DNA from: an uncultured Gemmatimonadales bacterium | GTDB taxonomy: Bacteria; Gemmatimonadota; Gemmatimonadetes; Gemmatimonadales; GWC2-71-9 | DNA: 64,000 nucleotides | Reading direction: 5' to 3' | Assembly (NCBI GenBank): GCA_963842945.1 | Contig: CAWJIM010000019.1 | Span: forward strand, 320,001-384,000 | Shown here: positions 12,270 through 28,198 of the stretch, piece by piece | How the letters are laid out: every line of letters begins with the position of its first letter | Position numbering within the stretch: position 1 is the stretch's first letter | Notes under the pieces: model-generated | Seen by the model: the letters and a program-made list of their open reading frames with translations, nothing else | What the model was told of the DNA's origin: nothing | The model's database searches: none | Translations under genes and position numbers: made by a program

Positions 12270-12376
12270 TTACGGGGACCTCCGGTTAGAGGCAGGAAGC
12301 AGAATGTGGCCAAGGTTAGTCGGTGGAGGTGCAGGGCCGCAAGCCAATCTTCTCACCCTCAGCTGATGGAATCACT

Positions 12377-13045
12377 ATGCCGTCCCTGATACTTCGAATC
12401 TTCCTTGGCGCAATGCTTCTGGTGACCAGCCGGGCGGCATCCCAGGCCACCGATACAGCGGCCGGCAAGAAGGGAGGCGCCATGCAGCCGGCGGCGCTGC
12501 CCCCGGGCTGGACTGCCCGGCCCGACGAGGGAGGCGATCCCGCTAAGATTCGATTCGTTACCATGGAACCGGGTTATCACCTGACGCTCGGGCCGGCCAC
12601 CATACTCTATCGGGCTGAGGATCTGGCCCAGGGGCCGTTCCATACGCTCGCGACGTTCCACCAAACGAAGAAGCCACGGCACCCCGAGGGCTACGGCCTC
12701 TTTGTCGGCGGGAAACAGCTGGATGGCAAGAATCAGACGTACACGTATTTCCTGGTTCGGGAGGACGGAGCCTACCTCATAAAGCAGAGGAAGGGAGACT
12801 CGACGTCGGAAGTGACCAAGGGGTGGAAGCCCAGTCCGGCAATCAAGAAGGCCGATGCTCAGGGCAAGGCTACCAACCTGCTGGAGATCGATGCCAAACA
12901 GGACTCGAAAAAAGTGGACTTCAAGGTCAACGGCCAGAGCGTGTACAGTGCGCCGGCCGACCAGATGGACCTCACCGGCATCGTAGGGCTCCGGGTCAAT
13001 CACACACTGGACGTTCACATCGAGGGATTTGCGGTTCACCAGTAA
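12377..13045 (+). CDS. Secreted beta-sandwich hypothetical protein (lectin/DUF1080-like)
   Basis: Signal peptide, beta-rich, GIVGLRVNH..V.IE.F end. Confidence 0.7.
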   Translation: MPSLILRIFLGAMLLVTSRAASQATDTAAGKKGGAMQPAALPPGWTARPDEGGDPAKIRFVTMEPGYHLTLGPATILYRAEDLAQGPFHTLATFHQTKKPRHPEGYGLFVGGKQLDGKNQTYTYFLVREDGAYLIKQRKGDSTSEVTKGWKPSPAIKKADAQGKATNLLEIDAKQDSKKVDFKVNGQSVYSAPADQMDLTGIVGLRVNHTLDVHIEGFAVHQ

Positions 13046-13115
13046 TCCTTGAGTGGTAATTTCGCCCCAGCACATTGGCCCCGTGCCTGCAACCATCCGG
13101 CGACATCGGGATCAA

Positions 13116-13973
13116 ATGGCGGTCTGCGCCGCCATTTGCAGTGTCGCCTTTTCCTTTTCTGCGGTTCCGCTGAAAGCTCAGACGCAGGTCGGGGTCGACG
13201 TGGGACTCTTCAGCTCCTACGTCTGGCGCGGGGTGACCATGACCAACAAACCGGTCCTGCAGCCGGCCGCGTATTTGTCCATTCCCGTTGGGAATGCGTC
13301 GGTCACCCTGGGAGCCTGGTCCAACATCGATCTGGGTAAGTACGATGACCCTGCGGACGACATCTCGGAGAGCGGGGGAAGCTCGGGCTTCAACTTCTCC
13401 GAGATGGATCCATATGCCGAGCTGAGCTTCCCCGCTGGCAAGACCACCCTGACCGGCGGCGTGCTGGGATACGTCTATCCCAATTCTGATAGCGCTCCCA
13501 ATTCCTCTGGTGTCACCAGCGACGCCAACTCGGCGGAGATTTATGGCAAACTGGGTGTGGATGTCCCCTTGAGCCCGGAGCTTTCGGTCTACTATGACGT
13601 CAGCAAGGTCAACGGAGCGTACATCGAGGGAGCGCTGAGCTACTCCATGGTGGCAAGCGAAAACCTTTCGATGGAGCTGGGCGCCGTGGCGGGTTTCAAT
13701 GCGGGCCGCGGGGTTCCGGATGATCCGCTGTCCGACGAGATCTCGAACTACGAGGACGACGGATTCACCCATCTGGATTTGTCGGCTGGACTGCCCTTTG
13801 CGCTGGGCGCCGTCTCCATCGCCCCGGTGGTGCACTTTGTAGTAAACGGAGATGATCGCACCAAGACCACCTCACCTACGAACGTCGACGAAGACGTCAA
13901 GCTCTGGGGCGGGGTGTCACTCACCTGGTCCAGCACCCTGGGGCCCGAGTCTCCCCCCGATGACGGGAGCTGA
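13116..13973 (+). CDS. TorF-like putative outer-membrane porin
   Basis: Signal peptide, SSYVWRG..PVLQP, WSNID, EMDPY, EIYGKLG motifs; start uncertain. Confidence 0.7.
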   Translation: MAVCAAICSVAFSFSAVPLKAQTQVGVDVGLFSSYVWRGVTMTNKPVLQPAAYLSIPVGNASVTLGAWSNIDLGKYDDPADDISESGGSSGFNFSEMDPYAELSFPAGKTTLTGGVLGYVYPNSDSAPNSSGVTSDANSAEIYGKLGVDVPLSPELSVYYDVSKVNGAYIEGALSYSMVASENLSMELGAVAGFNAGRGVPDDPLSDEISNYEDDGFTHLDLSAGLPFALGAVSIAPVVHFVVNGDDRTKTTSPTNVDEDVKLWGGVSLTWSSTLGPESPPDDGS

Positions 13974-13976
13974 CGA

Positions 13977-15329
13977 TCACAAGGCCTTCGACACCTCGCT
14001 AAAGCTGTCCTCCAGCCGGTTCAGCATCTCCTTCAAGAGCTCGACGGGAATTCCCAAGGCCGGCTCGACCCGGATGACCTTGGCGTTGGCGTAAGTCCCA
14101 GCTACCAGCACCCCGCGCTTGAACAACCCTGAGGCCACTTTCCACCCGATTTCCTGAGAGGGGAACTCCAGACCGATGAGCAAGCCCTTGCCGTGGGCCT
14201 CCTGGAGCACGCGGGGGTACTTCTGCTGGAGCCACCCGAGCTCTCGCAGCAGGAACTCGCCCTTTGTGGCTGCCTGGCCCGGGAGATCTTCCTCCAGGGT
14301 TACCTCGATGGCAGCCAGGCCAGCGGCGCAGGCCAGGGGGTTCCCCCCGAACGTGGTGGAGTGAATGATCGGATTGGGGATCATTACTTCCCAGATCTCT
14401 GCGGTGGAGATGAACGCCGAGAGCGGCATCACTCCACCACCGATGGACTTCCCGATGCACAAGATGTCGGGTACCACCTCCCAGTGGTCCACACCCCACA
14501 ACTTCCCCGTCCGTCCCATCCCGGTCTGGATCTCATCGGCGATGAGCAGAGCGCCGTAACGGGTGCAGAGCTCACGCGCTCGGGGGAAATACTCGGCCGG
14601 GGGAACGATGCCGCCGGCTTCTCCCTGCACCGGCTCGAGCACCAGGCCGGCGATCTGAACTCCTACCGACGCGCAGCGCTGGAATTCAGCCTCCAGCGCG
14701 TCCCCATCACCGTACGGCACGAAACGCACGTCCTGCAGGCCGGACTGGAAGGGCTCCCGGAACGAGGCCTTCCCCATAAGCGAGAGCGATCCCATGGATT
14801 TGCCATGAAATCCTCCGAGGGTGGAGATGAAAGTGTGGCGCCGGGTGTACAGGCGAGTCAGCTTGATGGCCCCTTCGATAGCATCGGTACCATTATTGAT
14901 GAAGAAGGAGTTCTGCAACTCGCCCGGGGTGATGGCGGACAGAACCTTGCCCAGGGCTGCCCGCCACGGCTCCAACAGCTCCTGACTGTTGAGCGCCATG
15001 CGCTGGATCTGGTCGGTAACGGCTTTGACGACCTTGGGATGATTGACGCCGGCGCTGAAGATGCCATAGCCGCCTAGGCAATCGATGTACTCCCGACCCA
15101 GCAGATCGCGCAGGATAGAGCCCTGTCCAGACCACTCAATGGCTGCGAACTGGCCGGCTTCGGTCACCGACTTGCGGTAGGTGACGAATCCGCGATTGTA
15201 GTACTTCTCGTAGCTGTCGACAGTCTCCGCGATGAAAGACTGCTGTTCTTGCACCGAAAGCTCCCGTCCCCCTATCAACTCGAGATAGCGCCGGGTCTGC
15301 TGCAACACTTGCTCGTTGGGTAGCCGCAA
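13977..15329 (-). CDS. patA: Putrescine aminotransferase
   Basis: Class III AT; YRKSVT, DCLGGYG, LNSQELL, DEIQTGMGRTG; PatA/YgjG-type N-terminus. Confidence 0.9.
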   Translation of the reverse strand: MRLPNEQVLQQTRRYLELIGGRELSVQEQQSFIAETVDSYEKYYNRGFVTYRKSVTEAGQFAAIEWSGQGSILRDLLGREYIDCLGGYGIFSAGVNHPKVVKAVTDQIQRMALNSQELLEPWRAALGKVLSAITPGELQNSFFINNGTDAIEGAIKLTRLYTRRHTFISTLGGFHGKSMGSLSLMGKASFREPFQSGLQDVRFVPYGDGDALEAEFQRCASVGVQIAGLVLEPVQGEAGGIVPPAEYFPRARELCTRYGALLIADEIQTGMGRTGKLWGVDHWEVVPDILCIGKSIGGGVMPLSAFISTAEIWEVMIPNPIIHSTTFGGNPLACAAGLAAIEVTLEEDLPGQAATKGEFLLRELGWLQQKYPRVLQEAHGKGLLIGLEFPSQEIGWKVASGLFKRGVLVAGTYANAKVIRVEPALGIPVELLKEMLNRLEDSFSEVSKAL

Positions 15330-15339
15330 TGCCGCTCCT

Positions 15340-16446
15340 TCAGGCCGATTTGATCTCGGTCCAGATCTGATCCCAGGTCGCTGTCTCTCTGCCGAGATCC
15401 ACCGGGTACTCCAGCCGCTTGAGCTCCGCCTCGGTGGGATAGGGCACCGGCGGAACCAGCATCTCGGCCGCCGCCGCGTTGGGCGTCCCGTAGCCGGTGG
15501 CCCGGGAGATCGCCGCCCCCACCTCGGGCCGGAGGATGTAGTTCATCCACTCGTGTGCGGCCCGCTTGTTGGGTGAGCTCCGGGGGATGCACATCAAATC
15601 AGTCCAGATGGTACAACCCTCTTTCGGGACGACGTAGGCAAGGTTGGGCTGTTCGGCTCTGGCCTGCGCCGTGTCGCCGTTCCACAGCTGCGAGATCCAG
15701 ATGTCGCCCGAGATCAGCTGGGCCTTCACCGGGGCGGAGATGTACGCCCGAAGCTGTTTCTTGGCCGAAATCGCATCAGCCTTGGCTCGGGACAGCTCAT
15801 CCGGATTGCTAGAGTTGAGCGAATGCCCGCGATAGCGAAGCTGGGAGCCAATCACCTCACGCGCATCATCCATCATGGTCATCTTGCCGGCATACTGCGG
15901 ATCCTGGAATACGGCCCAGGTCTCGACCGGGCCCCTCACCTTGTCGGTCCGATACGCGATCCCGCTGGTCCCCCACTGCCACGGCACGGTGTACCGATTC
16001 TCCGGATCTGCCGGAATATTCTGAAAAATCGGAGACAGGTTCTTGGAGCTGGGCAGATAGCTGCGACGAAGTGGAGCAATCAGATTAGTGGCCACGAGCA
16101 CCGGCAGGATGTAGCCGCTGGGCACGATAATATCGTACCCGCTGGCACCCGCCTGAAGCTTGGCGACCATCTCCTCATTGCTTTCGTAGGTATCGTAGGT
16201 CACCCGAACGCCGAACTCTCGTTCGAAATTCGAAACGGTGTCTTCGGCGATGTAATCCGACCAGTTGTAGATGTGCAGCTCTTTTTCGAGCGGCGGCAGT
16301 TCGGCGGTGTCATTATCCGGCCTGCCCTCTCGCCGGCAGGCTTCCAGAATGCCACCAACCACAGGGAGGCTCAGGCCCGCGCTCAATCCCCGGAGCAGGA
16401 ACTTGCGGCGGCCGATCGAAGCTGCGGTCTCGTCAGGGCTGATCAT
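15340..16446 (-). CDS. potD: Polyamine ABC transporter substrate-binding protein (Tat lipoprotein)
   Basis: GRRKFL Tat motif, LEAC, YNWSDYI, YESNEEM, PWQWGTSG, WTEIKS. Confidence 0.9.
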   Translation of the reverse strand: MISPDETAASIGRRKFLLRGLSAGLSLPVVGGILEACRREGRPDNDTAELPPLEKELHIYNWSDYIAEDTVSNFEREFGVRVTYDTYESNEEMVAKLQAGASGYDIIVPSGYILPVLVATNLIAPLRRSYLPSSKNLSPIFQNIPADPENRYTVPWQWGTSGIAYRTDKVRGPVETWAVFQDPQYAGKMTMMDDAREVIGSQLRYRGHSLNSSNPDELSRAKADAISAKKQLRAYISAPVKAQLISGDIWISQLWNGDTAQARAEQPNLAYVVPKEGCTIWTDLMCIPRSSPNKRAAHEWMNYILRPEVGAAISRATGYGTPNAAAAEMLVPPVPYPTEAELKRLEYPVDLGRETATWDQIWTEIKSA

Positions 16447-17709
16447 TCAGGTCACCCAGTCCCGCGCCCGATAATATCCTCCGACCAGCGGTAGAAACCA
16501 GGGAAATCCATTATAGAGCGGAAGCGCTCGAAAGCGCTCACTCCCCAGATCGGGGATTTGGCCGGCGCCGGCAATGACCTCCGCGATTCGGTGCCCCAGG
16601 TACGTGGCCAGCGCTACCCCATGACCACAATAGCCCATCGCATAATGGATTCCATCGAGCTTTCCAGCGTGAGGCAGATGGTTCCGCGGGTAGGCCACTT
16701 TGCCGGACCAGGCAAAATCGATCTCGACTCCGCCGAGTTGAGGAAAGACCTCCTGCATTCCAGTCCGCAGGATTGCAACGATCCGGTCGATTCCTACCGG
16801 TGTGAACGAGGCTCTGCCGCCAAACACCAGGCGGCGATCGGGGGAAAGCCGGAAGTAGTAAAGCAGGTGTTTGGTGTCGCTGAAGACCCTGCCCCGCGGA
16901 ACCAGCCGCTGTGCCAGCCCGGGCGGGAGCGGCGCGGTAGCAATCTGGTAGCTGCCGATCGGAATCACTCGGCGGCGAAGGGGTGAGAGCGCTCGCGGGG
17001 TATAGCCATTGGTTGCAGCCAGTACCTCTCGCGCGCGAATGACCGCGTCACCGGTGACAATCTCGAATCCGCCTTTCACTCGCCTGATCCGGAGGACGCG
17101 AACGTTCTCCTGGATGCGGGCACCGCCTCGGGCCGCGGCCGCTGCCATCCCCCGCACATATCTGGCCGGGTGCACGGCACAGGCTCCCGGATCCACCAGT
17201 GCCCCGTAGTAGCGCAGGCTGTCAATCTCCCTGCCCACCTCGCCGGGGCCCAGCAGCTCTGTGTGGTAGCCCAGCCGTTCATGAAGAAACCGGGCGCTCG
17301 CTTCCAGCGCGGCGACATGACCGGGCTTGGCGGCCAGGGTGACCGCGCCACAGCGAACGAAGTCACAGTCTATACGCTCATCGCTTATGAGGGTCGCGAC
17401 GTACTCGATAGCATCAAGGGATAGCCGGAACATGCCGGCGGCGCGTTCGGAGCCCAGGCGACGTTCCAGCTCCTCCATCTCAGGCTTGTAGCCCGGCAGG
17501 ATGAAACCGCCGTTGCGGCTACTGGCTCCCCATCCTACGGTATGCTGCTCCAACACGGTGGCTTCCAGTCCGAGTCGGGCCAGCGTTCTGGCCGCGGACA
17601 GACCGGTGTACCCCCCGCCGATGATCACCACGTCGCTGGAAGGGGGAAGCGGGGATGGAGGAACCGGGAGAGGAGGAGCTGTTTCAGTCCAGAGGCAGCG
17701 CTCAATCAT
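16447..17709 (-). CDS. FAD-dependent amine oxidoreductase (PuuB/gamma-glutamylputrescine oxidase-like)
   Basis: IGGGYTGLSAA, GASSRNGG, ATNGY, GYCGHGV. Confidence 0.85.
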   Translation of the reverse strand: MIERCLWTETAPPLPVPPSPLPPSSDVVIIGGGYTGLSAARTLARLGLEATVLEQHTVGWGASSRNGGFILPGYKPEMEELERRLGSERAAGMFRLSLDAIEYVATLISDERIDCDFVRCGAVTLAAKPGHVAALEASARFLHERLGYHTELLGPGEVGREIDSLRYYGALVDPGACAVHPARYVRGMAAAAARGGARIQENVRVLRIRRVKGGFEIVTGDAVIRAREVLAATNGYTPRALSPLRRRVIPIGSYQIATAPLPPGLAQRLVPRGRVFSDTKHLLYYFRLSPDRRLVFGGRASFTPVGIDRIVAILRTGMQEVFPQLGGVEIDFAWSGKVAYPRNHLPHAGKLDGIHYAMGYCGHGVALATYLGHRIAEVIAGAGQIPDLGSERFRALPLYNGFPWFLPLVGGYYRARDWVT

Positions 17710-17742
17710 CGGTGACCAGCTCGATCCCCCCAGTCATGCGCT

Positions 17743-18543
17743 TCATCGCATCCTCGCCTCCCTGCCTCCCGCGTCCCGCCGAACCAACCGGTCAGCCAGG
17801 TAGATCAGCAATGCGGTGACCAGCAGGATGATCGTGCTGATGGCGTTGATGCTTGGCTCAACGGTCTTGCGCACCATCCCATACACCACAATCGGAAGGG
17901 TGGAAGACCCGGAGCCGGAGACAAAGGAGGTGATCACGAAGTCATCGAAAGACATCGTGAACGCGAGCAGCGCCCCCGCAAAGATTCCGGGCCACAGCTG
18001 CGGCAGGGTGACACGCCAGAAGGTTGCCATCTCGTCTGCGCCGAGAGTCATGGCTGCTTCCTCGAGATGCTGGTCCATACCCTGCAGCCGGGCCAGCACT
18101 ACAACGACGACAAAGCTGATGCAGAACGCAACATGGGCGATGGTGATGGTGGCGAAGCCCAGCGGCAGGCGAAGGAGAACGAAAAGGATCAACAGTGAAA
18201 TCCCAACCACTATTTCCGGGGTAACGATAGGGAGATAGAGGAACGCTTCAACGGCCCGGCGGCCGGTAAACCGATGCCGAGCCAGCGCCAGGGCGAGCAA
18301 GGTTCCGAGAAGAGTAGCAATCAGCGTTGCCGTCAGGCCCACCAGTAGGCTCAGCTTGAGGCCGTGGAGGATCTCGGGTCGTTCGAGCAATCGCTGATAC
18401 CAGCGGAAGGTGAAACCCTCCCATTCGACCGAGAACTTGGAGTCGTTGAAGGAGAAGACGATCAGGATCAGGAGGGGCAGGTGGAGAAAGGCATAGACCA
18501 TTCCGCTTACGGCCAGAAGCCAGCGCGGAGCTGGCCGGTTCAT
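17743..18543 (-). CDS. potC: Polyamine ABC transporter permease
   Basis: EEAAMTLGA EAA loop, SFDDFVIT, TLPI. Confidence 0.9.
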   Translation of the reverse strand: MNRPAPRWLLAVSGMVYAFLHLPLLILIVFSFNDSKFSVEWEGFTFRWYQRLLERPEILHGLKLSLLVGLTATLIATLLGTLLALALARHRFTGRRAVEAFLYLPIVTPEIVVGISLLILFVLLRLPLGFATITIAHVAFCISFVVVVVLARLQGMDQHLEEAAMTLGADEMATFWRVTLPQLWPGIFAGALLAFTMSFDDFVITSFVSGSGSSTLPIVVYGMVRKTVEPSINAISTIILLVTALLIYLADRLVRRDAGGREARMR

Positions 18544-19427
18544 GACAAGGTGCCGGCCGGTGCCCGGCCTTGTATCCGGAGATAGATCAGAACTGCCACG
18601 AGTACCAACGCCATCACGATGAACGAGGCCGCTGACCCAAACGGCCAGTTTCGGGCGGCGGAAAACTGATTCTGTACCAGATTCCCGATCATCATCTGCT
18701 TTGCGCCACCGAGCAGATCCGGCGTGAGGAATGAGCCCAAGGCTGGAATGAAGACCAGCAGTGAACCGGCAATGATGCCCGGCATGGAGAGGGGAAGAGT
18801 TACTCGCCAGAAACGGGCAGAGGGCCGGGCCCCCAGCACCTCCGCGGCTTCGAGCAGAGAGGCATCGAGCTTTTCGAGCGACGCGTAGACCGGGAGAATC
18901 ATGAAGGGAAGAAAGCCGTAGACCAGCCCCACCATGACGGCGGCGGGCGTGTACAGAATGGTCAATGGCTCGCGAGTCAGACCCAACCGAAGCAGCCAGT
19001 CATTGATCAGCCCGGTGTCGCGCAGCAGAAAGATTATGGCGAAAGTCCGGACCAGGAAGCTGGTCCAGAAAGGCAGCACCACCAACAGCAGCAGCAGGTG
19101 CCGCCAGCGACCCGACCGAGCGATCAGATATGCGACCGGGTATCCCAGCATGAGGCAGATGACCGTGCAGGCCACCGACCAGAGGAAGGTTCGCTGAAGG
19201 ACGTCCAGGTAGAGAGGATCGAAGAAGCGAGCGTAGTGCTCGAGAGTAAAGCCAGGGTCCACGCCGCCGTAGACCCCCCGGGGCATGAAGCTGTACGCCA
19301 GCATGATCAGAATGGGGACCAAAAAGAACACAATCAGCCAAAACATGCCGGGCCCCAGCAGGGTCCAGGCTTGGATGCCGGGACGGGAGAACCGACGGAC
19401 AACCCGGCGATGCCAGGAGGTGCTCAT
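18540..19427 (-). CDS. potB: Polyamine ABC transporter permease
   Basis: PFWTSFLVRT, LLEAAEVLGA, NWPFGSA; ATGA coupling to potA. Confidence 0.9.
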   Translation of the reverse strand: MSTSWHRRVVRRFSRPGIQAWTLLGPGMFWLIVFFLVPILIMLAYSFMPRGVYGGVDPGFTLEHYARFFDPLYLDVLQRTFLWSVACTVICLMLGYPVAYLIARSGRWRHLLLLLVVLPFWTSFLVRTFAIIFLLRDTGLINDWLLRLGLTREPLTILYTPAAVMVGLVYGFLPFMILPVYASLEKLDASLLEAAEVLGARPSARFWRVTLPLSMPGIIAGSLLVFIPALGSFLTPDLLGGAKQMMIGNLVQNQFSAARNWPFGSAASFIVMALVLVAVLIYLRIQGRAPAGTLS

Positions 19428-20545
19428 CCCGCCTCGAGGACTTGGCATTCTTCAGGCTGCCAGACCACGGCGACGGCCTCTCCCCGCTTCCAGGCCAGTG
19501 GCTTGAGCAGCTGGCCTTCATTCCGGACCGCCACCTTCACCTTGCCTACTTGGGGAACGGTGACGACGACATGGATGGTCTCGCCCAGATAGATGATGTC
19601 ACCGATGGTGCCGATCACAGCGTTTTCTGCCCCGGGCACCTCACCCGGGTGGCAGATGTCCATCCACTCCGGTCTTACGGCAATGCACACTTCCGACCCG
19701 TTTTCTAACCGGAGACTGTCAGGCAGCCTGAACGACAGCCCGGGACCGCGCGCGGTCCACTCTCCCCGGGAGTCCTTCGTCGCGCGGCCCTGGAAGAAAT
19801 TGGATTCGCCGATAAACGTGGCGACGAACGCGGTTCGCGGGTTCTCGTAGATCTCGGCCGGCGTGCCCAGCTGAGCCAGCCGGGCGTTCTCCAAGACGCC
19901 GATCCGATCCGACATCGTCAGGGCTTCCTCCTGATCGTGGGTGACGTATACGAAGGTGGTGCCCAGCTGCTTGTTCAGGGCCTTGAGCTCCAGCTGCATT
20001 TCCTTCCTGAGCTTCAGATCAATCGCGCCGAGCGGCTCGTCCAGCAGCAGGATCGCCGGCTCCAGAACCAGCGCCCGCGCCAACGCCACTCGCTGCCGCT
20101 GCCCGCCGGACAGCTGGCTCGGCCTGCGTTTCCCGAACAGGTCAGGATCGAGCCGCACCATCTCGAGGGCACGCCGAACCCGCTGATCGATCTCCGCTCT
20201 CGGCGTTTTTCGCTGCTCCAGTCCAAAGGCCACGTTCCGAGCCACCGAGAGGTGAGGAAACAAGGCGTAGTTCTGAAACACCATGGAGAGCGGTCGCTCA
20301 TACGGTCGTGTCTGGTTGACCGTTTGACCGAGGAGACGGATTTCCCCGCTCCCTTCATCCGGTTGCTCCAGGCCGGCAAGCAGTCGCAAGGTCGTAGTCT
20401 TTCCGCAGCCGGAGGGGCCCAGGAGGGAAAAGAATTCACCTGGGTATATCTCGAAGGAGATATCGTTTACGGCCTTGATCTCGCCAAAGCTCTTGGTAAC
20501 CCGGATGAACTGGACAACAGGTGGGCTCGGTACGGCCGTGCTCAC
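19424..20545 (-). CDS. potA: Polyamine ABC transporter ATPase
   Basis: GPSGCGKT, LSGGQ, LLLDEP, HDQEEA, TOBE tail; GTGA coupling to gabT. Confidence 0.92.
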   Translation of the reverse strand: MSTAVPSPPVVQFIRVTKSFGEIKAVNDISFEIYPGEFFSLLGPSGCGKTTTLRLLAGLEQPDEGSGEIRLLGQTVNQTRPYERPLSMVFQNYALFPHLSVARNVAFGLEQRKTPRAEIDQRVRRALEMVRLDPDLFGKRRPSQLSGGQRQRVALARALVLEPAILLLDEPLGAIDLKLRKEMQLELKALNKQLGTTFVYVTHDQEEALTMSDRIGVLENARLAQLGTPAEIYENPRTAFVATFIGESNFFQGRATKDSRGEWTARGPGLSFRLPDSLRLENGSEVCIAVRPEWMDICHPGEVPGAENAVIGTIGDIIYLGETIHVVVTVPQVGKVKVAVRNEGQLLKPLAWKRGEAVAVVWQPEECQVLEAG

Positions 20546-21888
20546 GACGTCGCGGCTTCCAGCGACTGCTTCAGAACGTCGAGACCCTCCTTCAGCACGG
20601 CTTCCGGCGTGGTGAGCGGGGCCAGAAGTCTGATCGTGTTCCCGTACGTGCCAGCCGCCAGCAGAATCAGACCGCGCTGCATCGCTGCCGAAAGCACGGC
20701 CTGAGTCAGCTCGGGATTTGGCGCCTTGCTTCTGCGATCCCGCACCAGCTCCATCGCCATCATCGCGCCCAGGCCTCGGACATCCCCGATGACCTCGTGC
20801 TCGGTGACCCACCGGCAGAAGCGCGAACGGATCTGCTCACCCATCCGCGAGGCCAGGCCGACCAGGTCCTCGGCTTCCATGGCGTCAATGACGGCGAGTG
20901 CCGCCGCACACGCGAGAGGATTGCCGCCATAGGTCCCTCCCAGCCCACCCACCTGGGGCGCATCCATCACCTCGGCCCGGCCAGTTACCGCAGCCAGCGG
21001 GAACCCGCCTGCCAGCGACTTTGCGGTGACGATGATGTCCGGTATCAGGTCGTAATGCTCGCTGGCGAACAGCTTTCCGGTGCGGCCGAACCCGGTCTGG
21101 ATTTCATCGGCAATGAACAGGATGCCGTGCTCCCGGGCGAAGGCGGCCAGCTCGCTCACGTACTCCTTCGGTGCCGGAACGAATCCCCCTTCACCCAGCT
21201 GCAACTCCATGACTACGGCGGCAACCGACTGGGGATCCACGATGGCCGCGAACATTTCCTCCAGCCTGGGCCGGCTCGCCTGACAACACCTCCCGGCATC
21301 ACCGGCGTGCCGTGCCTCAGGGCAGCGATAACAATAAGGAAAGGGAATGCGGTAGACCTCAGGGGCAAACGGCCCGAAACCCTTCTTGTAGGGGCTCACC
21401 TTCGAGGTGAGCGCCATGGCCAGGTTGGTCCGGCCGTGGAAGGCATGTTCGAAGCACACCAGCGCCGGCCGGCCGCTGAAATGGCGGGCGACTTTGACCG
21501 CGTTCTCGATCGCCTCAGCTCCGCTGTTGAGCAGGAACGTCTTCTTCGGGTGGGTGCCCGGAGTTATCCGGTTCAGCCGTTCGGCGAGTCGGACGTAGGG
21601 CTCGTAGGTTGACACCGGAAAGCAGACGTGGGCAAAACGATCCAGTTGGCTCCGAACCGCCTCCACCACTCCGGGATGGCGATGTCCAGTGTTCACCACT
21701 CCGATGCCACCGGCAAAGTCTATCAGGCGGTTCCCATCGGCATCGGTGATCACGGCCCCCTCGGCATGGACCACTGCGATGGGAGTCACGGCCGGCACTC
21801 CCCGTGGAACCGCGGCAGCCCGGCGCTCGAGGAGGGCCCGACTGGCCGGTCCTGGTATCTCGGTTCGCAGCTGAATGACGGGAGACAT
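20542..21888 (-). CDS. gabT: 4-aminobutyrate aminotransferase
   Basis: DFAGGIGV, FHGRT, GEGGF, DEIQTGFGRTG, AKSLAGG, GGLGGTYGGNP. Confidence 0.9.
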   Translation of the reverse strand: MSPVIQLRTEIPGPASRALLERRAAAVPRGVPAVTPIAVVHAEGAVITDADGNRLIDFAGGIGVVNTGHRHPGVVEAVRSQLDRFAHVCFPVSTYEPYVRLAERLNRITPGTHPKKTFLLNSGAEAIENAVKVARHFSGRPALVCFEHAFHGRTNLAMALTSKVSPYKKGFGPFAPEVYRIPFPYCYRCPEARHAGDAGRCCQASRPRLEEMFAAIVDPQSVAAVVMELQLGEGGFVPAPKEYVSELAAFAREHGILFIADEIQTGFGRTGKLFASEHYDLIPDIIVTAKSLAGGFPLAAVTGRAEVMDAPQVGGLGGTYGGNPLACAAALAVIDAMEAEDLVGLASRMGEQIRSRFCRWVTEHEVIGDVRGLGAMMAMELVRDRRSKAPNPELTQAVLSAAMQRGLILLAAGTYGNTIRLLAPLTTPEAVLKEGLDVLKQSLEAATS

Positions 21889-22055
21889 CACACCTCTGCT
21901 GGAATAGCTGAAGAGCGGACGCGAGATCCGGAGATTATCGTGGGCCGGGGCGGGGCGTAAGAGGGTACGGCTTTTCTGGTACCCGGTGCACTGGACTGCA
22001 GCGGCCTTTTTCGGGGCGTTCCCTTCAACTCGTTCCTGAGTAATAAGTTGCCTAG

Positions 22056-22071
22056 TGGCATAGAGATACCA
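22056..22071. promoter_or_regulatory. Imperfect palindrome, MocR/GabR-like box
   Basis: TGGCAT-N4-ATACCA between divergent gabT and dehydrogenase genes. Confidence 0.35.
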
Positions 22072-22100
22072 ATCTGCACACCTGCCAGTGGCAGTGTGAC

Positions 22101-22258
22101 GAGGGGGCTGGACAGGGGGTGGGGGGCCGGAGCTACTATGGCTGAGTACCAGCCCCCTCTTCGGGGGTGCGTACGTTTGCATCCTCCGACCAAGCGGAGG
22201 GTCCACTCTCACAGCTGACGATCTCCTTGAGCTGTGAGCCCCCATCAGCGGCGGGGGC
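22101..22258 (+). promoter_or_regulatory. Structured 5' leader candidate with 26-aa uORF
   Basis: Several stems including an 11-bp perfect pair; uORF 22138-22218. Confidence 0.4.
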
Positions 22259-22328
22259 GAGGTTCCGCAGGCGGATGTTGCCGACGGGGCCAGACCGAGT
22301 GCCGCACCAACAATGAAAAGAGGAGTTT

Positions 22329-23561
22329 GTGAGAGTCCTGCTCCTGGGTGCCGGCGCGGTGGGGACCGTGTCCGCCCTCAAATTCGCGAAGGAGGCGATG
22401 CTCGAGAAACTCGTCATCGCCGATGCAGTGGCCGCTCGCGCCTCAGTTCTCGCGGACCGGCTCAACGATTCGAGGGTTACGGCAGTAGAGCTCCACGCGG
22501 GCAACCGAGACGCCGTAGCCAATGTCATTCGAGAAACCAGTACTACGCTTCTCTTGAACGCGGCGCTTCCCGCGACCAACCTCGCTGTGATGCGGGCCTG
22601 CCTGGATGCAGGCTGCGATTACATCGATCTTGCCAGCGCGGGAACGGACGCGGACGGCATCCCCAAGATGGATGACCAGTTTGCGCTCGGGGCCGAGTTC
22701 AAGGCCGCCGGCCGGCTCGCCCTCCTGGGCATGGGCGCCGACCCCGGCACCACGAATGTCTATGCCGCCTACGCGGCCAAGCACCTGCTCGATGTGGTCT
22801 CCGAACTGCGGGTGCGGGACGGCGACAACGCCGTATGCCAGGGAAGCAGCGGCCTTATCGCGGCGTTCAGTCCCTGGGTCATGATCGATGAATGTCTGTG
22901 CCAGGCGGTGTCTTACCGGGCAGGGCGCTACTGCCTGGAGGAGCCGCTGAGCGGAGAGGAGCCGTTCGATTTCCCGGAGCTGGGAGTCTTGAGCTGCTAC
23001 TATGTGGACCATGAGGAATCCAAGACGCTGCCCCGGTTCTTTCCCCAGGCGCGGGTCATCGACTTCAAGTTGTGCATGGATGAGCTGACCGTCGAGACGC
23101 TGCAGGTCATCAAGCGTCTGGGGCTCTCCCGCACCGATCAAGTGAAAGTCGGCGAGGCCAGCGTGGCCCCTCGCGACCTGCTGGTCTCACTGCTTCCCCA
23201 GCCCAAGGATCTGGCCGGGCGGCTGCGGGGCAAGACCTGCGTCGGCACCCTGGCCCGAGGCTACAAGAACAACGAGCCAAAGGCCTACTTTGTCTATAAT
23301 GTGAGCGATCACGAAGCGACCTATCGTGAGCTCGGCGTGCAGGCCACGGCGTACCAGACCGGAATTCCGCCGGTCATCGCCGCACGTCTGATCTCCACCG
23401 GAGTCTGGAAGGGAACCGGCGTGATGTCTCCCGAGCAGTTCGACCCCGACCCCTTCCTGGAGCAGCTGGCCAAAGAGGGGATGCCTTGGCAGGTGCGGGA
23501 TGATTCCCAGCGTCTTGGCGTTCCGCGCGGTCGCCCATCCCGCGAGATCGCAGCGGCCTAG
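22329..23561 (+). CDS. Saccharopine-dehydrogenase family, carboxy(nor)spermidine dehydrogenase-like
   Basis: GAGAVG, GMGADPGTTNVYAAYA, HEE, QATAYQTGIP, FDPDPF; AGGAG SD. Confidence 0.85.
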   Translation: MRVLLLGAGAVGTVSALKFAKEAMLEKLVIADAVAARASVLADRLNDSRVTAVELHAGNRDAVANVIRETSTTLLLNAALPATNLAVMRACLDAGCDYIDLASAGTDADGIPKMDDQFALGAEFKAAGRLALLGMGADPGTTNVYAAYAAKHLLDVVSELRVRDGDNAVCQGSSGLIAAFSPWVMIDECLCQAVSYRAGRYCLEEPLSGEEPFDFPELGVLSCYYVDHEESKTLPRFFPQARVIDFKLCMDELTVETLQVIKRLGLSRTDQVKVGEASVAPRDLLVSLLPQPKDLAGRLRGKTCVGTLARGYKNNEPKAYFVYNVSDHEATYRELGVQATAYQTGIPPVIAARLISTGVWKGTGVMSPEQFDPDPFLEQLAKEGMPWQVRDDSQRLGVPRGRPSREIAAA

Positions 23562-23594
23562 CACATCGGCTCAGTACGAAAAGAAGGGGGAACC

Positions 23595-25094
23595 ATGACG
23601 ACCACGGCTCGGGTGCACGGGCCGGCGAAGAAGTCGCCTGTCACCCGCTATCAGATGTACATCGATGGCCGTTTCGTCGATGGACAGGACGGCCAGACTC
23701 TGGAGGTGTACGATCCTTCCACCGAGGAGGCCATCGCCACCGTCCCCGCCGGTAAGGCTGGGGACGTAGACCGGGCGGCCCAGGCCGCGACCCGGGCGTT
23801 TTATCAGGGATGGAAAGGTGTCACGGCTCAGGAACGGGGCCGAATTCTCTTTCGCCTGGCAGAACGGGTGCGGGCGCGGCGGACGGAACTGGCCGAGCTG
23901 GAGACCCGGAACACGGGGAAGCCGATTACCGAGTCTGAATACGACATGGACGATACGGCGACGTGCTTCGAGTACTACGGCGGCCTAGCCACCAAGATCA
24001 ATGGCGAGGTGCTGCCGGTTCCCGCCGAGGCGGTCGCGTTCGCCATGCGAGAGCCCGTGGGCGTGGCCGGTCAAATCATCCCCTGGAACTATCCCCTGCT
24101 GATGGCGGCCTGGAAGATCGGACCGGCGCTGGCGGCGGGCTGCACGGTGGTGCTCAAACCGGCCGAACAGACGCCCCTGTCCATTCTGGAGCTGGCCCGG
24201 GATTTTGAAGGGCTGGGACTGCCGCCGGGCGTGGTAAACATCGTCACCGGTGACGGACCCGGTGCCGGAGCCCCCCTGGTGGCTCATCCCGCGGTGCGCA
24301 AGATCGCCTTCACCGGCAGCGCAGAGGTGGGCAAGAGCATCATGCGGAACGCAGCCGATCAGCTCAAGCGGGTCTCCCTCGAGCTGGGCGGCAAGTCTCC
24401 CAACATCTTCTTCAGCGACGCCGATTTTGAGAACGCGGTGGACGGCGCGCTCTTCGGTACCTTCATCAACCAGGGTGAGGTCTGCTCCGCCGGCAGCAGG
24501 GTGCTGGTGCAGCGGGACATCTATAAGAAGTTCGTCGACGCTGCCACGGCCAAGGCCAAAACCATCAAGCTTGGTCCGGGACTGGACCGGGAAACCAAAA
24601 TGGGTCCCCTCGTCAGCGCCGAGCAGCGGGACCGGGTCGCAGGGTACCTCGATATCGGTCGAAAGGAGGCGAAGGTGGCGGTCGGCGGCGGCAAGCCGAA
24701 ACAGTTTGACAAGGGCTGGTATATCGAGCCGACCATCTTCTACGACGTGGACAACTCGGCCACCATCGCGCAGGAGGAGATCTTCGGTCCGGTGATGAGT
24801 GTGATCCCCTTCAACGACGAGGCCGAAGCAATCCGAATTGCCAACGCGACACCTTACGGCCTGGCGGCAGCAGTGTGGACCCGCGACATCTTCAAGGCCT
24901 TTCGAGTGGTCAAAGCCCTGGAGGCCGGGATTGTCTGGGTCAACCACATGCAGCCCACCTTCGTGGAAGCCCCGTGGGGCGGCTACAAGGCGTCAGGTTT
25001 CGGGCGGGAGCTAGGGCACTGGGGGGTCGAGGAGTACCTCGAGACCAAACAGGTCTTCATCAATCTCGATGAGAAGCCCATAGGCTGGTATTAG
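23595..25094 (+). CDS. Aminoaldehyde/betaine-aldehyde-type aldehyde dehydrogenase
   Basis: PWNYP, LELGGKSP, GEVCSAG, EEIFGPV. Confidence 0.92.
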   Translation: MTTTARVHGPAKKSPVTRYQMYIDGRFVDGQDGQTLEVYDPSTEEAIATVPAGKAGDVDRAAQAATRAFYQGWKGVTAQERGRILFRLAERVRARRTELAELETRNTGKPITESEYDMDDTATCFEYYGGLATKINGEVLPVPAEAVAFAMREPVGVAGQIIPWNYPLLMAAWKIGPALAAGCTVVLKPAEQTPLSILELARDFEGLGLPPGVVNIVTGDGPGAGAPLVAHPAVRKIAFTGSAEVGKSIMRNAADQLKRVSLELGGKSPNIFFSDADFENAVDGALFGTFINQGEVCSAGSRVLVQRDIYKKFVDAATAKAKTIKLGPGLDRETKMGPLVSAEQRDRVAGYLDIGRKEAKVAVGGGKPKQFDKGWYIEPTIFYDVDNSATIAQEEIFGPVMSVIPFNDEAEAIRIANATPYGLAAAVWTRDIFKAFRVVKALEAGIVWVNHMQPTFVEAPWGGYKASGFGRELGHWGVEEYLETKQVFINLDEKPIGWY

Positions 25095-25290
25095 GAAGTC
25101 GTGAGTCAGCAGCCGCCGGTCGCCAGACTATCAGATGGGATGGCGACTCTCACCTGGCGGCTGTCGACTGATGACTGACGACTGAGAAGCAGTTGCACTT
25201 GCGCAACGATGGGTCGCCACTACCCCCCTGCAATTCCTGGCACAACCGCTCCAGACAATTGCGACGCAACAGCTTCGACTGGTGCAACTC

Positions 25291-25306
25291 GGGCACGATG
25301 CTCGCA
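25291..25306 (+). promoter_or_regulatory. Sigma54-like -24/-12 promoter
   Basis: GGGCACGATGCTCGCA with GG-N10-GC spacing. Confidence 0.45.
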
Positions 25307-25364
25307 TTCCCCGCCTGTCCGTCGTGGTCGCGCAGGCTCATTCTACCATCCCACAATCCAAAAC

Positions 25365-26747
25365 GTGAATCCTCTCGCTCCGAGTGAGAATCAGCTGCGC
25401 AACGTTCGGATCGAGGATCTGCTCGGCCGCCCCCCAGTCAATCTGGATCTCTCAACCGCGCGGGCGGATTTGCAGGGTCGGGTCATTCTCCTGACCGGGG
25501 CCGCCGGATCGATTGGTTCCGAGCTAGCCCGTCAGATCATGCCCTTTCGCCCGGCCCGCCTGGTGCTGCTGGATCAGTCTGAGAGCGACCTGTATTTCGT
25601 TCACCTGGAGCTCAAGGAATCTCATCCTCAGGTGGAGCTGGTTCCAGTCATCTGCGACATCACCAATCAGAGCCGGCTGGCCCAGGTCTACGCCCAGTTT
25701 CGCCCGGAATACGTCATCCATGCTGCGGCGTACAAGCATGTGCCGCTGATGGAGGCCAACGTGCTCGAGGCGGTGCGCAACAACGTCCTCGGCACTCTGC
25801 TCGTCGCCACCAATGCGGTGCGCTATGGCGCCACCAAGATGCTGCTGGTCTCGACCGACAAGGCGATTCGGCCCTCCAGCGTCATGGGCGCCACCAAACG
25901 GGTGGCTGAACGGATCATCTTCGGCCTGCCCAATCTCCACCGGTACGGGACCGACTTCAGGGCGGTGCGCTTTCGTAATGTGCTGGCCTCCAAGGGAAGC
26001 GTCATCCCCTTGTTCGAGCGCCAGCTGGCGGCAGGCGGGCCGATCACCGTCACCCATCCGGACGTCCAGCGCTACTTCATGACCATCCCGGAAGCGGCCC
26101 AGCTGGTGCTCCAGGCGGGATCGCTGGGAGAGACGGCCGGCGCGATTGCGATGCTGGAGATGGGGGAGCCGGTCCGAATTCTCGACCTGGCCGAGAAGCT
26201 CGTCCGCTTTTCCGGTCGGGTTCCCGGCAAAGACATTCAGATCGTGTTCACCGGTCTCCGTCCCGGCGAGAAGCTGCGCGAGGAGGAGATCTCGACCCTC
26301 GAGGCCACGGTACCGACCTCTGCCGAAAAAATTCGGATCAGTCAGACTACGGAAATCGCAGGGCCCGAGCTGGTCCAAAAGCTCAGCCGGCTCTTCGCCT
26401 TCCTCGAAGCTGGAGACCGCGAGGGTCTGCTCACCACGCTGTGCGAGCTGGTACCCGAGTGCGTGCCGCCCCTGCGCCAGTTTCTCTCAGCACCCTTCGC
26501 AGCCCGCGTCGATTCTGTGGGCACCCAGACCTGGCCGGCGCTAGTCGGTTCCAGTGAGACTTACCGGTGCGAGCGCCGGCGAGTCGCTGGCTTGGTATCA
26601 GAGCCTTCCGAACTTCGGTTGACGAACCGGCGGGAGGGAGTCGCATGCCGCCGTAAGACCCCTCGCACGGGTGGGCGCCGGCGCACGGACCTAGGTGTGC
26701 TGCGGGATCCCCTCGGGCCGCCTCGCAGGCAGCCGGTTGAACGGTGA
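25365..26747 (+). CDS. CapD/PglF-type nucleotide-sugar 4,6-dehydratase, catalytic domain only
   Basis: IEDLLGR, TGAAGSIG, HAAAYKHVP, STDKA, MGATK, RYFMTIPEA, GLRPGEKL; start uncertain. Confidence 0.88.
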   Translation: MNPLAPSENQLRNVRIEDLLGRPPVNLDLSTARADLQGRVILLTGAAGSIGSELARQIMPFRPARLVLLDQSESDLYFVHLELKESHPQVELVPVICDITNQSRLAQVYAQFRPEYVIHAAAYKHVPLMEANVLEAVRNNVLGTLLVATNAVRYGATKMLLVSTDKAIRPSSVMGATKRVAERIIFGLPNLHRYGTDFRAVRFRNVLASKGSVIPLFERQLAAGGPITVTHPDVQRYFMTIPEAAQLVLQAGSLGETAGAIAMLEMGEPVRILDLAEKLVRFSGRVPGKDIQIVFTGLRPGEKLREEEISTLEATVPTSAEKIRISQTTEIAGPELVQKLSRLFAFLEAGDREGLLTTLCELVPECVPPLRQFLSAPFAARVDSVGTQTWPALVGSSETYRCERRRVAGLVSEPSELRLTNRREGVACRRKTPRTGGRRRTDLGVLRDPLGPPRRQPVER

Positions 26748-26754
26748 TTCCGGT

Positions 26755-27708
26755 ATGGCAGGCGGATTAAGAGTTATTCTCATTGCCGACCAGCCGGCCG
26801 GCGTGGAAGCTCTCCGCATGCTGAGCGCAACACACCACCAGGTAGTGGCGGTGATGACGCGCGAGGCCAGCGCCCACGGAGCCACGGTCGCCGGCGTCGC
26901 CTCGCGACTGGGTTACCCGCTCTGGCCCGCACGGCAGGCGAGAGAACCCGGCTTCGGGAAGGTCATCAGGGCCCAACGGATAGATTTGGTCCTCAACGTC
27001 CTGTCCTCGCATGTCCTGCCCTACGAGGTGGTGACCGCTCCCCGGATCGGGAGCTTCAACCTTCACCTCGGCCCCCTCCCCACCTATGCGGGACTTCATG
27101 CGCCCAATTGGGCCATCTACCAGGGTAAGCGCAATCATGCGGTGACGCTCCACTGGATGGACGAGGGCGTCAACACGGGTCCAATTGCCTATACCGCTGA
27201 GCTTCCGATCGATCAGGACGACACTGGTCTCACACTTAGTGCCAAATGCGTACGAGCCGGTCTTCCCTTGCTCCACGACCTGCTTGCCGCAGCGGTACGA
27301 GGAGAGGCGCCCCGGCAGCCCCAACTCGGGGTCAGGCGTCATCACGGTCAGGGAGTGCCGCACGAAGGCCGGCTGATCTGGAGTGACGCGGCCGTCGGGA
27401 TAGTGAACTTCGTGAGGGCTTGCGACTACTTCCCGTTTGCTTCACCCTGGGGGTCGCCCCGCGCCTATCTCACTGGACGCGAGATCGTGGTCCTGAAAGC
27501 CACCCTGACCGGTGAGCCCACTGATGCCCCACCGGGAACCGTCGGCCGTCATGTCGACACCGATGTCCTCGTCGCTGCACGGGACCAGTGGGTACGGGTT
27601 CGACGAGTCCGGCTGGGCAGCTCGAGTTTTTCCCCAGTTGATGTACTCAGAGAGGGTGAACGCTTCGCCCTTCCACGTCCATCCCTATCGGTTCCCCAGC
27701 CCCAATAA
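26755..27708 (+). CDS. Formyltransferase (Fmt/ArnA-N fold), probably sugar N-formyltransferase
   Basis: FNLH..PLP.YAG, VTLHWMDEGVNTGPI, C-terminal formyltransferase domain. Confidence 0.8.
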   Translation: MAGGLRVILIADQPAGVEALRMLSATHHQVVAVMTREASAHGATVAGVASRLGYPLWPARQAREPGFGKVIRAQRIDLVLNVLSSHVLPYEVVTAPRIGSFNLHLGPLPTYAGLHAPNWAIYQGKRNHAVTLHWMDEGVNTGPIAYTAELPIDQDDTGLTLSAKCVRAGLPLLHDLLAAAVRGEAPRQPQLGVRRHHGQGVPHEGRLIWSDAAVGIVNFVRACDYFPFASPWGSPRAYLTGREIVVLKATLTGEPTDAPPGTVGRHVDTDVLVAARDQWVRVRRVRLGSSSFSPVDVLREGERFALPRPSLSVPQPQ

Positions 27709-27963
27709 GCAGGACTTTCCGACCCTATCCGCCCAACACGCGCTGCGGCGTGCTGCGACGGTCGAGGGCATGCGCCTTGCCCCTGTCCGCGGCAACCGAC
27801 ACTTCGGATTCAGCAGAGACTCCGTGCGACGGTCTCTTCGCTCATTACCCGAATGCAAAAAATGGCAGACCGGACGAGCCTGATGTGGTATCGCGGACCA
27901 TTCGCTGTTGCACGGCAGTGGCTCCGTGGCTCACGGGCAACAGTCACCCGAGGAAGGTGCCGT

Positions 27964-28104
27964 ATGTCCAGCCCCCGCCGTCTCGACTCGATTCTTCTCT
28001 GCTCTGCCGTCGCCTTGGTCGGCGCTGCCATTGGCTACCGAGGCGACAGGAATCCGCTCGAGCTTTATCTGGGCGCGGTACGCCCGGCCGCGGTTACCCG
28101 GTGA
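27964..28104 (+). CDS. 46-aa single-TM peptide
   Basis: GAGGAAGG SD; hydrophobic ILLCSAVALVGAAIG. Confidence 0.45.
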   Translation: MSSPRRLDSILLCSAVALVGAAIGYRGDRNPLELYLGAVRPAAVTR

Positions 28105-28198
28105 GCACACTGGTCCCCGGACCTTTGCCGTTGTCCAGCCAGCCGGCCCGGGGGCCTCGGCGCAGGCGCCCCGCGGGGCCGCCGCCGCCGCTCCGCCG

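Follow-up and report, generated by a model that had tools for sequence, protein, structure and literature searches.

In a 64,000-nt stretch of DNA from an uncultured Gemmatimonadales bacterium (assembly GCA_963842945.1, contig CAWJIM010000019.1; hereafter the window), a gene for a protein with the fold of carboxyspermidine dehydrogenase (CASDH) lies within a polyamine locus. The protein has what looks like an NAD-type cofactor site, its usual partner enzyme is missing and its gene is preceded by a folded leader RNA; the locus may therefore encode an undescribed polyamine-cleaving enzyme that is controlled by an RNA switch. Our best reading, which we hold with moderate confidence, is that this CASDH-like enzyme would use NAD+ to cleave spermidine or homospermidine into putrescine and an aminoaldehyde. 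An initial annotation of the window had already proposed a catabolic role; it mentioned neither the altered cofactor site nor the conserved RNA leader, which are added here. The observation is confirmed as real and as general for this Gemmatimonadales lineage, and the catabolic interpretation is strengthened and partly supported, not proven.

Cofactor site, active site and missing partners of the CASDH-like protein

The CASDH-like gene, its upstream elements and the aldehyde dehydrogenase (ALDH) gene that begins 33 nt beyond it are arranged as follows, in coordinates of the 64-kb window.

22109..22139, plus strand: promoter-like element TGGACA-N19-TACTAT, a pattern present in 48 of 51 leader-bearing loci
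22171..22328, plus strand: structured 5′ leader RNA, a riboswitch candidate (core in 51 of the 52 loci with upstream sequence; no Rfam match)
22177..22218, plus strand: 13-codon TTG...TGA frame within the leader, intact in 37 of 42 leaders
22329..23561, plus strand: CASDH/CAPADH-fold, probably NAD+-specific amine dehydrogenase of 410 aa (PF03435 and PF16653; NF043000, 220 bits against a cut-off of 800)
23595..25094, plus strand: betaine/aminoaldehyde-type ALDH (TIGR01804, 593 bits against 669; NF010000, 514 against 615)

An AlphaFold model of the CASDH-like protein (pLDDT 92) best matches CASDH-family structures (8DEB, TM 0.90), followed by lysine 6-dehydrogenase (LysDH; 3ABI, TM 0.74) and then by saccharopine dehydrogenases and homospermidine synthase (HSS; ~0.69). 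The PF03435 plus PF16653 fold with its dimerisation domain is present, and the cut-off of NF043000, the CASDH/CAPADH profile, is not reached. Close homologues are labelled Gemmatimonadales. Residues are numbered here through the Bacteroides finegoldii homologue, which, Arg45 apart, agrees at the sites considered here with the numbering published for Bacteroides fragilis. Asp138, Asp164, Glu188, the His228-Glu229-Glu230 triad and Thr344 are kept, whereas Ser34-Arg35-Thr36 of CASDH is replaced by Asp32-Ala-Val, Asn105 by Ser (S103), Glu107 by Gly (G105), Asn181 by Ser, Arg187 by Asp and Thr343 by Gln. The segment FSPWVMIDEC, singled out in the initial annotation, is indeed present and aligns with FNPEINIREI of solved CASDH-family chains.

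Several of these replacements fall at sites of known or proposed function. According to the available part of the B. fragilis study, Ser34, Arg35, Thr36 and Lys39 bind the 2′-phosphate of NADP, NADH is not turned over, and structures of LysDH and saccharopine reductase are without the His-Glu-Glu triad (PMC10413350). Asn105, Glu107 and Arg187 make up the proposed amine-recognition site of CAPADH, as far as the accessible portions of two further papers describe it (PMC13683441, PMC10599626). Among 120 close homologues, Asp32 stands at the end of strand β2 in 119, with Ala or Thr at position 33. An acidic residue that ends β2 of a Rossmann fold is the usual fingerprint of NAD use, and Asp32 thus suggests that the protein is probably NAD+-specific. 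The triad, Asp138, Asp164 and Glu188 are invariant in 120 of 120, as are S103, G105, D187 and Q343, and additional invariant or near-invariant acids are found at D107, D109, D115, D166, D187 and D227. All the kept and exchanged residues listed above, Thr344 and the Ser in place of Asn181 included, recur in 119-120 of the 120.

A phylogenetic check, which the initial annotation had called for, placed the protein outside the CASDH/CAPADH clade. The tree was a quick, midpoint-rooted IQ-TREE reconstruction with SH-aLRT support only, and its 101 rows (18 chimeric or partial sequences of 119 were dropped) comprised the window protein, 7 Gemmatimonadota loci, 13 plasmid-collection references, a paralogue on contig C5 of the source assembly (G000) and representatives of 365-470 aa (from 150), with no HSS row. 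The CASDH/CAPADH rows, of Ser/Thr/Ala-Arg type, form one clade on a long stem (SH-aLRT 100), the Gemmatimonadota rows form a separate clade (100) and an actinobacterial group forms a third (100). The branching order of the three is not settled by the tree, and all of them are nested among Asp-type rows, whose named members include Clostridia, Ammoniphilus, Thermoleophilia and Betaproteobacteria. This might mean that NADP-type CASDH is derived from NAD-type enzymes, which is a suggestion only because the tree is midpoint-rooted. More widely, metagenome relatives carry His-Glu-Glu in 111 of 111 proteins and Asp at the cofactor site in 83.

The decarboxylase gene nspC was sought with TIGR01047 (cut-off 409 bits), which as a control was exceeded in 2 of 14 genomes. 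There was no match in G000, an assembly that is 87% complete and 6% contaminated, and none over cut-off in 50 genus genomes, 45 of which have the CASDH-like gene, or in 121 family genomes (the unpublished genomes G153 and G064 count in denominators only). Weak matches scored at most 44 bits, and the two that were scanned are LysA, over the LysA cut-off. With S. meliloti NspC as the query, tblastn against G000 gave at best E=0.002, and a PF02784 search for a concealed decarboxylase in that assembly returned only LysA (two copies) and SpeA. The 78 metagenome loci of distant relatives, which are partly redundant, contain no nspC, versus four of five canonical loci; for actinobacterial relatives its absence refers to the local flanks only.

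Equally, no PuuA-type synthetase was found in G000, because GlnA is the best-scoring label for its glutamine synthetase (GS)-family genes, the second of which is nearest to type I-alpha GS; a GS-like gene ~46 kb from the locus was rejected as PuuA on the latter ground. A scan of 50 genus genomes with NF045547 gave none and is non-discriminating, no control genome having reached the cut-off. The absence of nspC and PuuA that the initial annotation noted in the window thus holds for the whole assembly, whereas for PuuD two PuuD-like peptidase C26 genes lie elsewhere in it (95 and 131 bits, below the cut-off of 266). The assembly further encodes SpeA, an agmatine-deiminase-family gene, a separate LysDH-like (3ABI-like) gene on C5 and an NF001980 'homospermidine biosynthesis protein'. 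Of the 121 family genomes, 96 exceed the NF001980 cut-off, and the 13 that have the CASDH-like gene are all among them; the activity follows the NCBI label and work on SpeY, of which part was available (PMC13625781). On C24, an MMSDH-like gene (447 against 448.5 bits) adjoins an aminotransferase and could supply a further step for β-alanine.

With regard to assembly quality, a duplicate proS-lysA region (C10:18280-22578 and C16:184166-188114) and a third GS copy (C18:23356-25143) indicate contamination in G000, and the second proS-lysA copy is probably contaminating. Several G000 genes are frameshifted, among them GS on C19:295.5-297 kb and a ureohydrolase on C20.

A conserved leader RNA ahead of the CASDH-like gene

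Alignment of upstream regions delineated a conserved block of ~160 nt between the promoter-like element and the GTG start codon of the CASDH-like gene; the one locus without the complete core retains its 3′ half. When 15 loci were compared with the window, the 5′ 96 nt of the leader were 75-99% identical, versus 69-78% for coding sequence and 48-57% further upstream. The proposed structure consists of P1 (22181-22202), P2 (22208-22238) with the loop CUCCUU (22223-22228), and a further stem (22239-22257), with a pseudoknot between its loop, GCGGC (22248-22252), and GCCGC (22301-22305), followed by a variable hairpin arm (22261-22291) and the Shine-Dalgarno (SD) sequence GAGGAG (22320-22325).

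In this structure 99.3% of 1551 cells are paired. Double changes affect six pairs (against a mean of 2.0 in shuffles and 0-3 in slid controls), among them a pseudoknot pair that flips from C-G to G-C in five sequences; kinship inflates such a count, and four of the six pairs fall within one stem. The variable arm ranges from 15 to 79 nt and is free in sequence, yet its hairpin closes in 42 of 42 leaders. RNAalifold independently gives P1, P2 and the GCGGC/GCCGC pairing, and does not give the CCCCC/GGGGG stem that this pairing crosses. The single-sequence fold is modest (z -2.1). The P2 loop is able to pair with the SD sequence, a pairing that has no covariation and that in 4 of 42 leaders is disrupted at two positions.

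No hits at E<=1 were obtained with Rfam 15 over 14 kb, and six sub-threshold hits over 261 nt are chance matches. A model of the leader matches 18 of 151 phylum genomes, all of one family, and 18 of its 19 hits lie directly before a CASDH-like gene, the other being an 82-nt fragment at a contig end. The leader model R1 had no match in 75 of the 81 sources searched, among them loci from actinobacteria, archaea and metagenomes. Where the polyamine cluster is absent, the leader still accompanies the CASDH-like gene. A scan for promoters and terminators (16-18 nt spacer) gave nothing above shuffles, did not list TGGACA-N19-TACTAT and revealed no terminator in the leader. Metatranscriptome contigs include short, near-identical pieces over the SD sequence and start codon, which cannot show strand, start or level and are not used as evidence.

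Riboswitch classes can be recognized by a conserved, covarying structure in the 5′ untranslated region next to the ribosome binding site, which is found here, and by their occurrence before several unrelated genes of a pathway, which is not. As the leader is found on one gene only, there is no second gene to name its ligand. On these sequence characteristics we consider it a riboswitch candidate that probably acts on translation of the CASDH-like gene and possibly as an ON switch. We regard it as possible, though doubtful, that the leader is instead a leader-peptide attenuator or a protein-binding site. The 13-codon frame, which begins with TTG or GTG and includes Pro-Pro and Arg-Arg, is consistent with this alternative, as is the anti-SD pairing, with its broken positions and lack of compensatory change. 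However, 1-nt indels break the frame in 5 of 42 leaders, its commonest change (a His/Arg codon) is non-synonymous and is compensated in the stem in 20 sequences, and both the sequence conservation and the pseudoknot reach well beyond its stop codon.

The polyamine module, a proposed route and its competitors

The initial annotation had named PotABCD, PatA and GabT, with the CASDH-like gene followed by ALDH, and profile searches recovered all of these in place. The CASDH-like gene is divergent from a gabT-led run on the minus strand (gabT-potA-potB-potC-FAD oxidoreductase-potD-patA), in which neighbours overlap or are separated by gaps of at most 33 nt; the potA start and the gabT ATG were read from the sequence.

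13977..15329, minus strand: PatA-like putrescine aminotransferase (NF008570, 594 bits against a cut-off of 612; TIGR03372, 484)
15340..16446, minus strand: PotD/PotF-type polyamine-binding protein (NF007962/NF007048, ~194 bits, under cut-offs; best PDB matches Lmo0810 and PotF/PotD)
16447..17709, minus strand: FAD-dependent DAO-family oxidoreductase, PuuB-like at family level (PF01266)
17743..18543, minus strand: PotC permease (NF007047, 266 bits)
18540..19448, minus strand: PotB permease (NF007044, 279 bits)
19424..20545, minus strand: PotA ATPase, whose GTG start overlaps the gabT stop (TIGR01187, 374 bits, over cut-off)
20542..21888, minus strand: GabT 4-aminobutyrate aminotransferase with an ATG start (TIGR00700, 557 bits, over the cut-off of 507)

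The predicted PuuB-like oxidase is present as an FAD-dependent gene, but its identity as PuuB did not survive beyond the family level; its best NCBIfam label is L-pipecolate oxidase (NF050086, 189 bits against a cut-off of 600), and it is missing from some related loci (e.g. L036 and L028). Across 53 genome-scan loci, ALDH lies directly 3′ of the CASDH-like gene in 44 of the 50 that extend far enough, and in 25 of 31 the upstream neighbour on the opposite strand is gabT. In many loci, a second ABC system of YdcS/Pot-like type is inserted ahead of the CASDH-like gene.

Co-occurrence was assessed in one sample of 121 family genomes, with identity thresholds of at least 66% for the CASDH-like protein, 80% for ALDH and 50% for PotD. 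The CASDH-like gene is found in 13 of them, PatA in 14, ALDH in 13 and PotD in 24. All 13 gene-bearing genomes have PatA and 12 have ALDH, also where the genes are unlinked, whereas nine have PotD. Thirteen PotD loci from genomes without the trio contain no PatA, ALDH or GabT orthologue of this cluster, and three of these have only distant aminotransferase, ALDH or GS-like genes (33-35%). Because the CASDH-like gene, PatA and ALDH co-occur more tightly with each other than with PotD, they appear to act as a module.

The cofactor, direction and substrate that we infer for the enzyme would make it a secondary-amine dehydrogenase that runs CASDH chemistry in reverse with NAD+. The carbon beside the inner nitrogen of the triamine would be oxidized and the resulting imine hydrolysed, such that spermidine would yield putrescine and 3-aminopropanal, a direct reversal of the CASDH geometry, and homospermidine would yield putrescine and 4-aminobutanal. 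The adjacent ALDH would consume the aldehyde and pull the reaction; a pull of this kind allows an unfavourable oxidation to proceed, for which the action of AASS in lysine catabolism is a parallel. PatA would then deaminate putrescine, ALDH would form 4-aminobutyrate (or β-alanine) and GabT would convert 4-aminobutyrate to succinic semialdehyde, with no glutamylation required. The leader would probably tune translation of the CASDH-like gene to the level of a ligand, for which a polyamine is the most plausible candidate. In a bolder version, the enzyme would be the first spermidine/homospermidine dehydrogenase to depend on NAD+ and would belong to a large, uncharacterised Asp-type group ancestral to NADPH-dependent CASDH, and the leader would be a new class of polyamine riboswitch that turns the gene on by freeing the SD sequence; taken as a whole we think this unlikely, if well within reach.

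Of the outcomes that the initial annotation named as refuting its proposal, the two open to computation, clustering with canonical CASDH and an nspC elsewhere in the genome, were both looked for and not observed. Asp32 and the co-occurrence with PatA and ALDH add support for the catabolic reading, whose substrate and direction are the more conjectural parts, and several observations weigh against it. The co-occurring genomes are kin and may represent one clade. The extra acids are known from the alignment, their placement in the pocket not being shown by the model, which has a pLDDT of 65 at residues 101-110. Glu229 is a signature of the CAPADH type and, with the retained Asp164, also fits agmatine-derived or carboxy-aminopropyl substrates. 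The FAD oxidoreductase of the operon could itself cleave triamines, and the strong conservation of a leader on a single gene would fit an OFF switch for a biosynthetic step just as well. Five flanked loci (L035, L043, L044, L045 and L050) have no polyamine-catabolic neighbour to the CASDH-like gene, and actinobacterial relatives are found with TetR and APC permeases only. Contexts of distant relatives are mixed and dominated by RACo, MttB, GNAT, MFS and tandem copies; among the 78 metagenome loci a PotD-like neighbour occurs in three and a class III aminotransferase in six, and 33 have one neighbour cluster in common, which includes some spurious open reading frames and from which the member scanned is a RACo corrinoid activator.

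The wider family consequently looks amine-catabolic and not uniformly polyamine-specific. Some distant relatives adjoin Pot ABC, class III aminotransferase and (methyl)malonate-semialdehyde dehydrogenase-like genes (L100, L136, L160, L165 and L177). In one of these, a haloarchaeal locus (L100:238-10630), potBCDA, AOR (aldehyde ferredoxin oxidoreductase), ALDH, a His-Ser-Glu homologue and MMSDH form one run, likely an independent polyamine catabolic operon. In ~30 archaeal-looking metagenome loci (L110-L146, e.g. L112:4422-11955), two to three tandem CASDH-like genes, one of Asp type and one of Gly-Ala-Arg type, lie between RACo and MFS genes, and other loci adjoin MttB-like methyltransferases; these contexts suggest catabolism of N-methylated amines. 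The actinobacterial Asp-type clade (L054-L056, L059, L097-L099), on plasmids and chromosomes, has a divergent TetR gene and often an APC permease.

Among other explanations, the initial annotation had offered condensation: the enzyme would use NADH to join PatA-made 4-aminobutanal to putrescine (or agmatine), giving homospermidine or a related triamine, and the leader would be a product-sensing OFF switch. PatA is the tightest co-occurring gene, four gene-bearing genomes are without a PotD orthologue, and the leader loop can pair with the SD sequence; moreover, the known spermidine riboswitch turns biosynthetic genes off, according to the available part of its description (PMC10853860). This proposal is weakened because every gene-bearing genome already carries a homospermidine-biosynthesis DHS homologue, and G000 also has SpeA and the agmatine-deiminase-family gene. 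In addition, the ALDH directly downstream in most loci would destroy the aldehyde to be condensed, and 4-aminobutanal cyclises. We consider condensation improbable. Salvage by reverse CASDH action, in which carboxyspermidine, carboxyaminopropylagmatine or another N-(3-amino-3-carboxypropyl) compound would yield putrescine or agmatine and aspartate semialdehyde, is rather more improbable in our judgement. It would explain why His228 and Asp164 are kept, the latter corresponding by alignment to the Asp that docks the α-amino group in CAPADH (PMC10599626, in part), and a homoserine-dehydrogenase-like gene lies near four distant loci (L150, L160, L165 and L172). The exchange of Thr343 for Gln and Arg187 for Asp in 120 of 120 homologues argues against it, as does the aminoaldehyde type of the neighbouring ALDH. 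To our knowledge, carboxy-aminopropyl intermediates are not common environmental substrates.

We consider it about as improbable as salvage that the enzyme acts like LysDH and oxidizes a primary amine (putrescine, cadaverine, agmatine, lysine or ornithine) to a cyclic imine and ammonia. In favour of this, the fold is shared, the operon FAD enzyme is best labelled as a pipecolate oxidase, and PatA, ALDH and GabT can serve cadaverine/5-aminovalerate routes too. Yet PatA already deaminates diamines, G000 has its separate LysDH-like gene on C5, and LysDH is without His-Glu-Glu (PMC10413350, in part). That the protein is an ordinary biosynthetic CASDH or CAPADH, with decarboxylation by LysA, SpeA or an unrecognized enzyme, seems very improbable indeed. 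Such an enzyme would share the fold and catalytic triad, and in B. fragilis the CASDH and decarboxylase genes can be unlinked, according to the accessible part of one paper (PMC13683441); nevertheless, nspC is in none of the genomes searched, the NADP-binding and recognition-loop residues are lost, and the protein falls outside the CASDH/CAPADH clade.

Several neighbouring features were also noted. Tail-to-tail with patA are a Gcw_chp-family outer-membrane-like gene (13053-13973, plus strand), which could encode a polyamine porin, and a gene for an unannotated secreted protein (12323-13045, plus strand); this pair accompanies the Pot cluster beside RND/TolC genes in many relatives. A capsule/polysaccharide block (25209-29617; a CapD-like epimerase gene and those following) separates ALDH from two-component genes, which come straight after ALDH in L002 and L005. 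In L208, L214, L224 and L225, a gene for a phytoene-dehydrogenase-like FAD enzyme, possibly another amine oxidase, stands between gabT and ALDH, and the CASDH-like gene is elsewhere. A PRK07046-type transaminase occurs with the cluster in several Gemmatimonadales (L207, L216 and L223) and near distant CASDH-like homologues in unrelated metagenome loci (L167).

Significance and comparison with known systems

If the proposed route is correct, NAD+-linked cleavage by a CASDH-fold enzyme would open a new way into triamine breakdown for Gemmatimonadales of soil. A large family whose members in Actinobacteria, Firmicutes and archaea now carry the label 'saccharopine dehydrogenase' would thereby gain its first function, and to count CASDH-like genes as spermidine biosynthesis where nspC is missing would be a mistake. 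The leader is an independent second point of interest, being a short RNA and a candidate for another architecture of polyamine riboswitch besides the known one. A literature search that covered few subscription papers, and no supplements, returned no description of the clade, of an NAD+-dependent spermidine dehydrogenase or of the leader RNA, and no enzyme for homospermidine catabolism; the network in fig. S10D of PMC10599626 may show the clade, and motif tables of RNA-discovery studies outside Rfam may hold the leader.

The closest relatives are CASDH, CAPADH and CANSDH (8DEB, 4INA, 4RL6 and 8H4Z; TM 0.88-0.90, 28-32% structural identity), with which the protein shares the His-Glu-Glu triad and equivalents of Asp140, Asp166, Glu188 and Thr344. 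Unlike them, it has Asp in place of Ser-Arg-Thr at the 2′-phosphate site and replacements of N105, E107, N181, R187 and T343, and it belongs to a separate clade with catabolic neighbours in genomes without nspC. Thus, the protein would be a reversed CASDH in its proposed working, yet it departs from CASDH in its 2′-phosphate site, recognition residues, partner gene, clade and NF043000 score. A precedent for such a pair is provided by the saccharopine dehydrogenase domain of AASS and saccharopine reductase, which share the Pfam family and are, respectively, NAD+-bound and catabolic and NADP(H)-dependent and biosynthetic; the AASS domain differs from the present protein in identity (13-15%), active site and its amino-acid substrate. 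AASS carries out NAD+-dependent oxidative C-N cleavage followed by an ALDH step, the mirror of its NADPH-dependent biosynthetic twin. LysDH (18% identity), an NAD-using fold relative, ranks below the CASDH chains and is without the triad. HSS, likewise an NAD-using relative in fold, has 15-16% identity, and no HSS chain was found when PDB chains were searched by sequence with the CASDH-like protein; it builds homospermidine from two putrescines, according to the part of PMC13625781 available.

The bacterial routes of triamine breakdown in the available part of a review are glutamylation, acetylation, aminotransferases, oxidases and SpdH, with no NAD+-dependent CASDH-fold enzyme among them (PMC9397018). 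SpdH of Pseudomonas aeruginosa, the Puu/Pau/GlnA3 glutamylation routes and PatA-PatD resemble the proposed route in converting a triamine to a diamine and an aminoaldehyde, followed by ALDH and GabT (PMC9397018), but SpdH is unrelated: it is a polyamine oxidase that binds heme and gives diaminopropane and 4-aminobutanal. Finally, the spermidine riboswitch, a SAM-I variant in the accessible part of its description (PMC10853860), is likewise a structured leader ahead of a polyamine gene, whereas the leader described here has no SAM-I or other Rfam match, differs in architecture, and is probably translational and possibly an ON switch.

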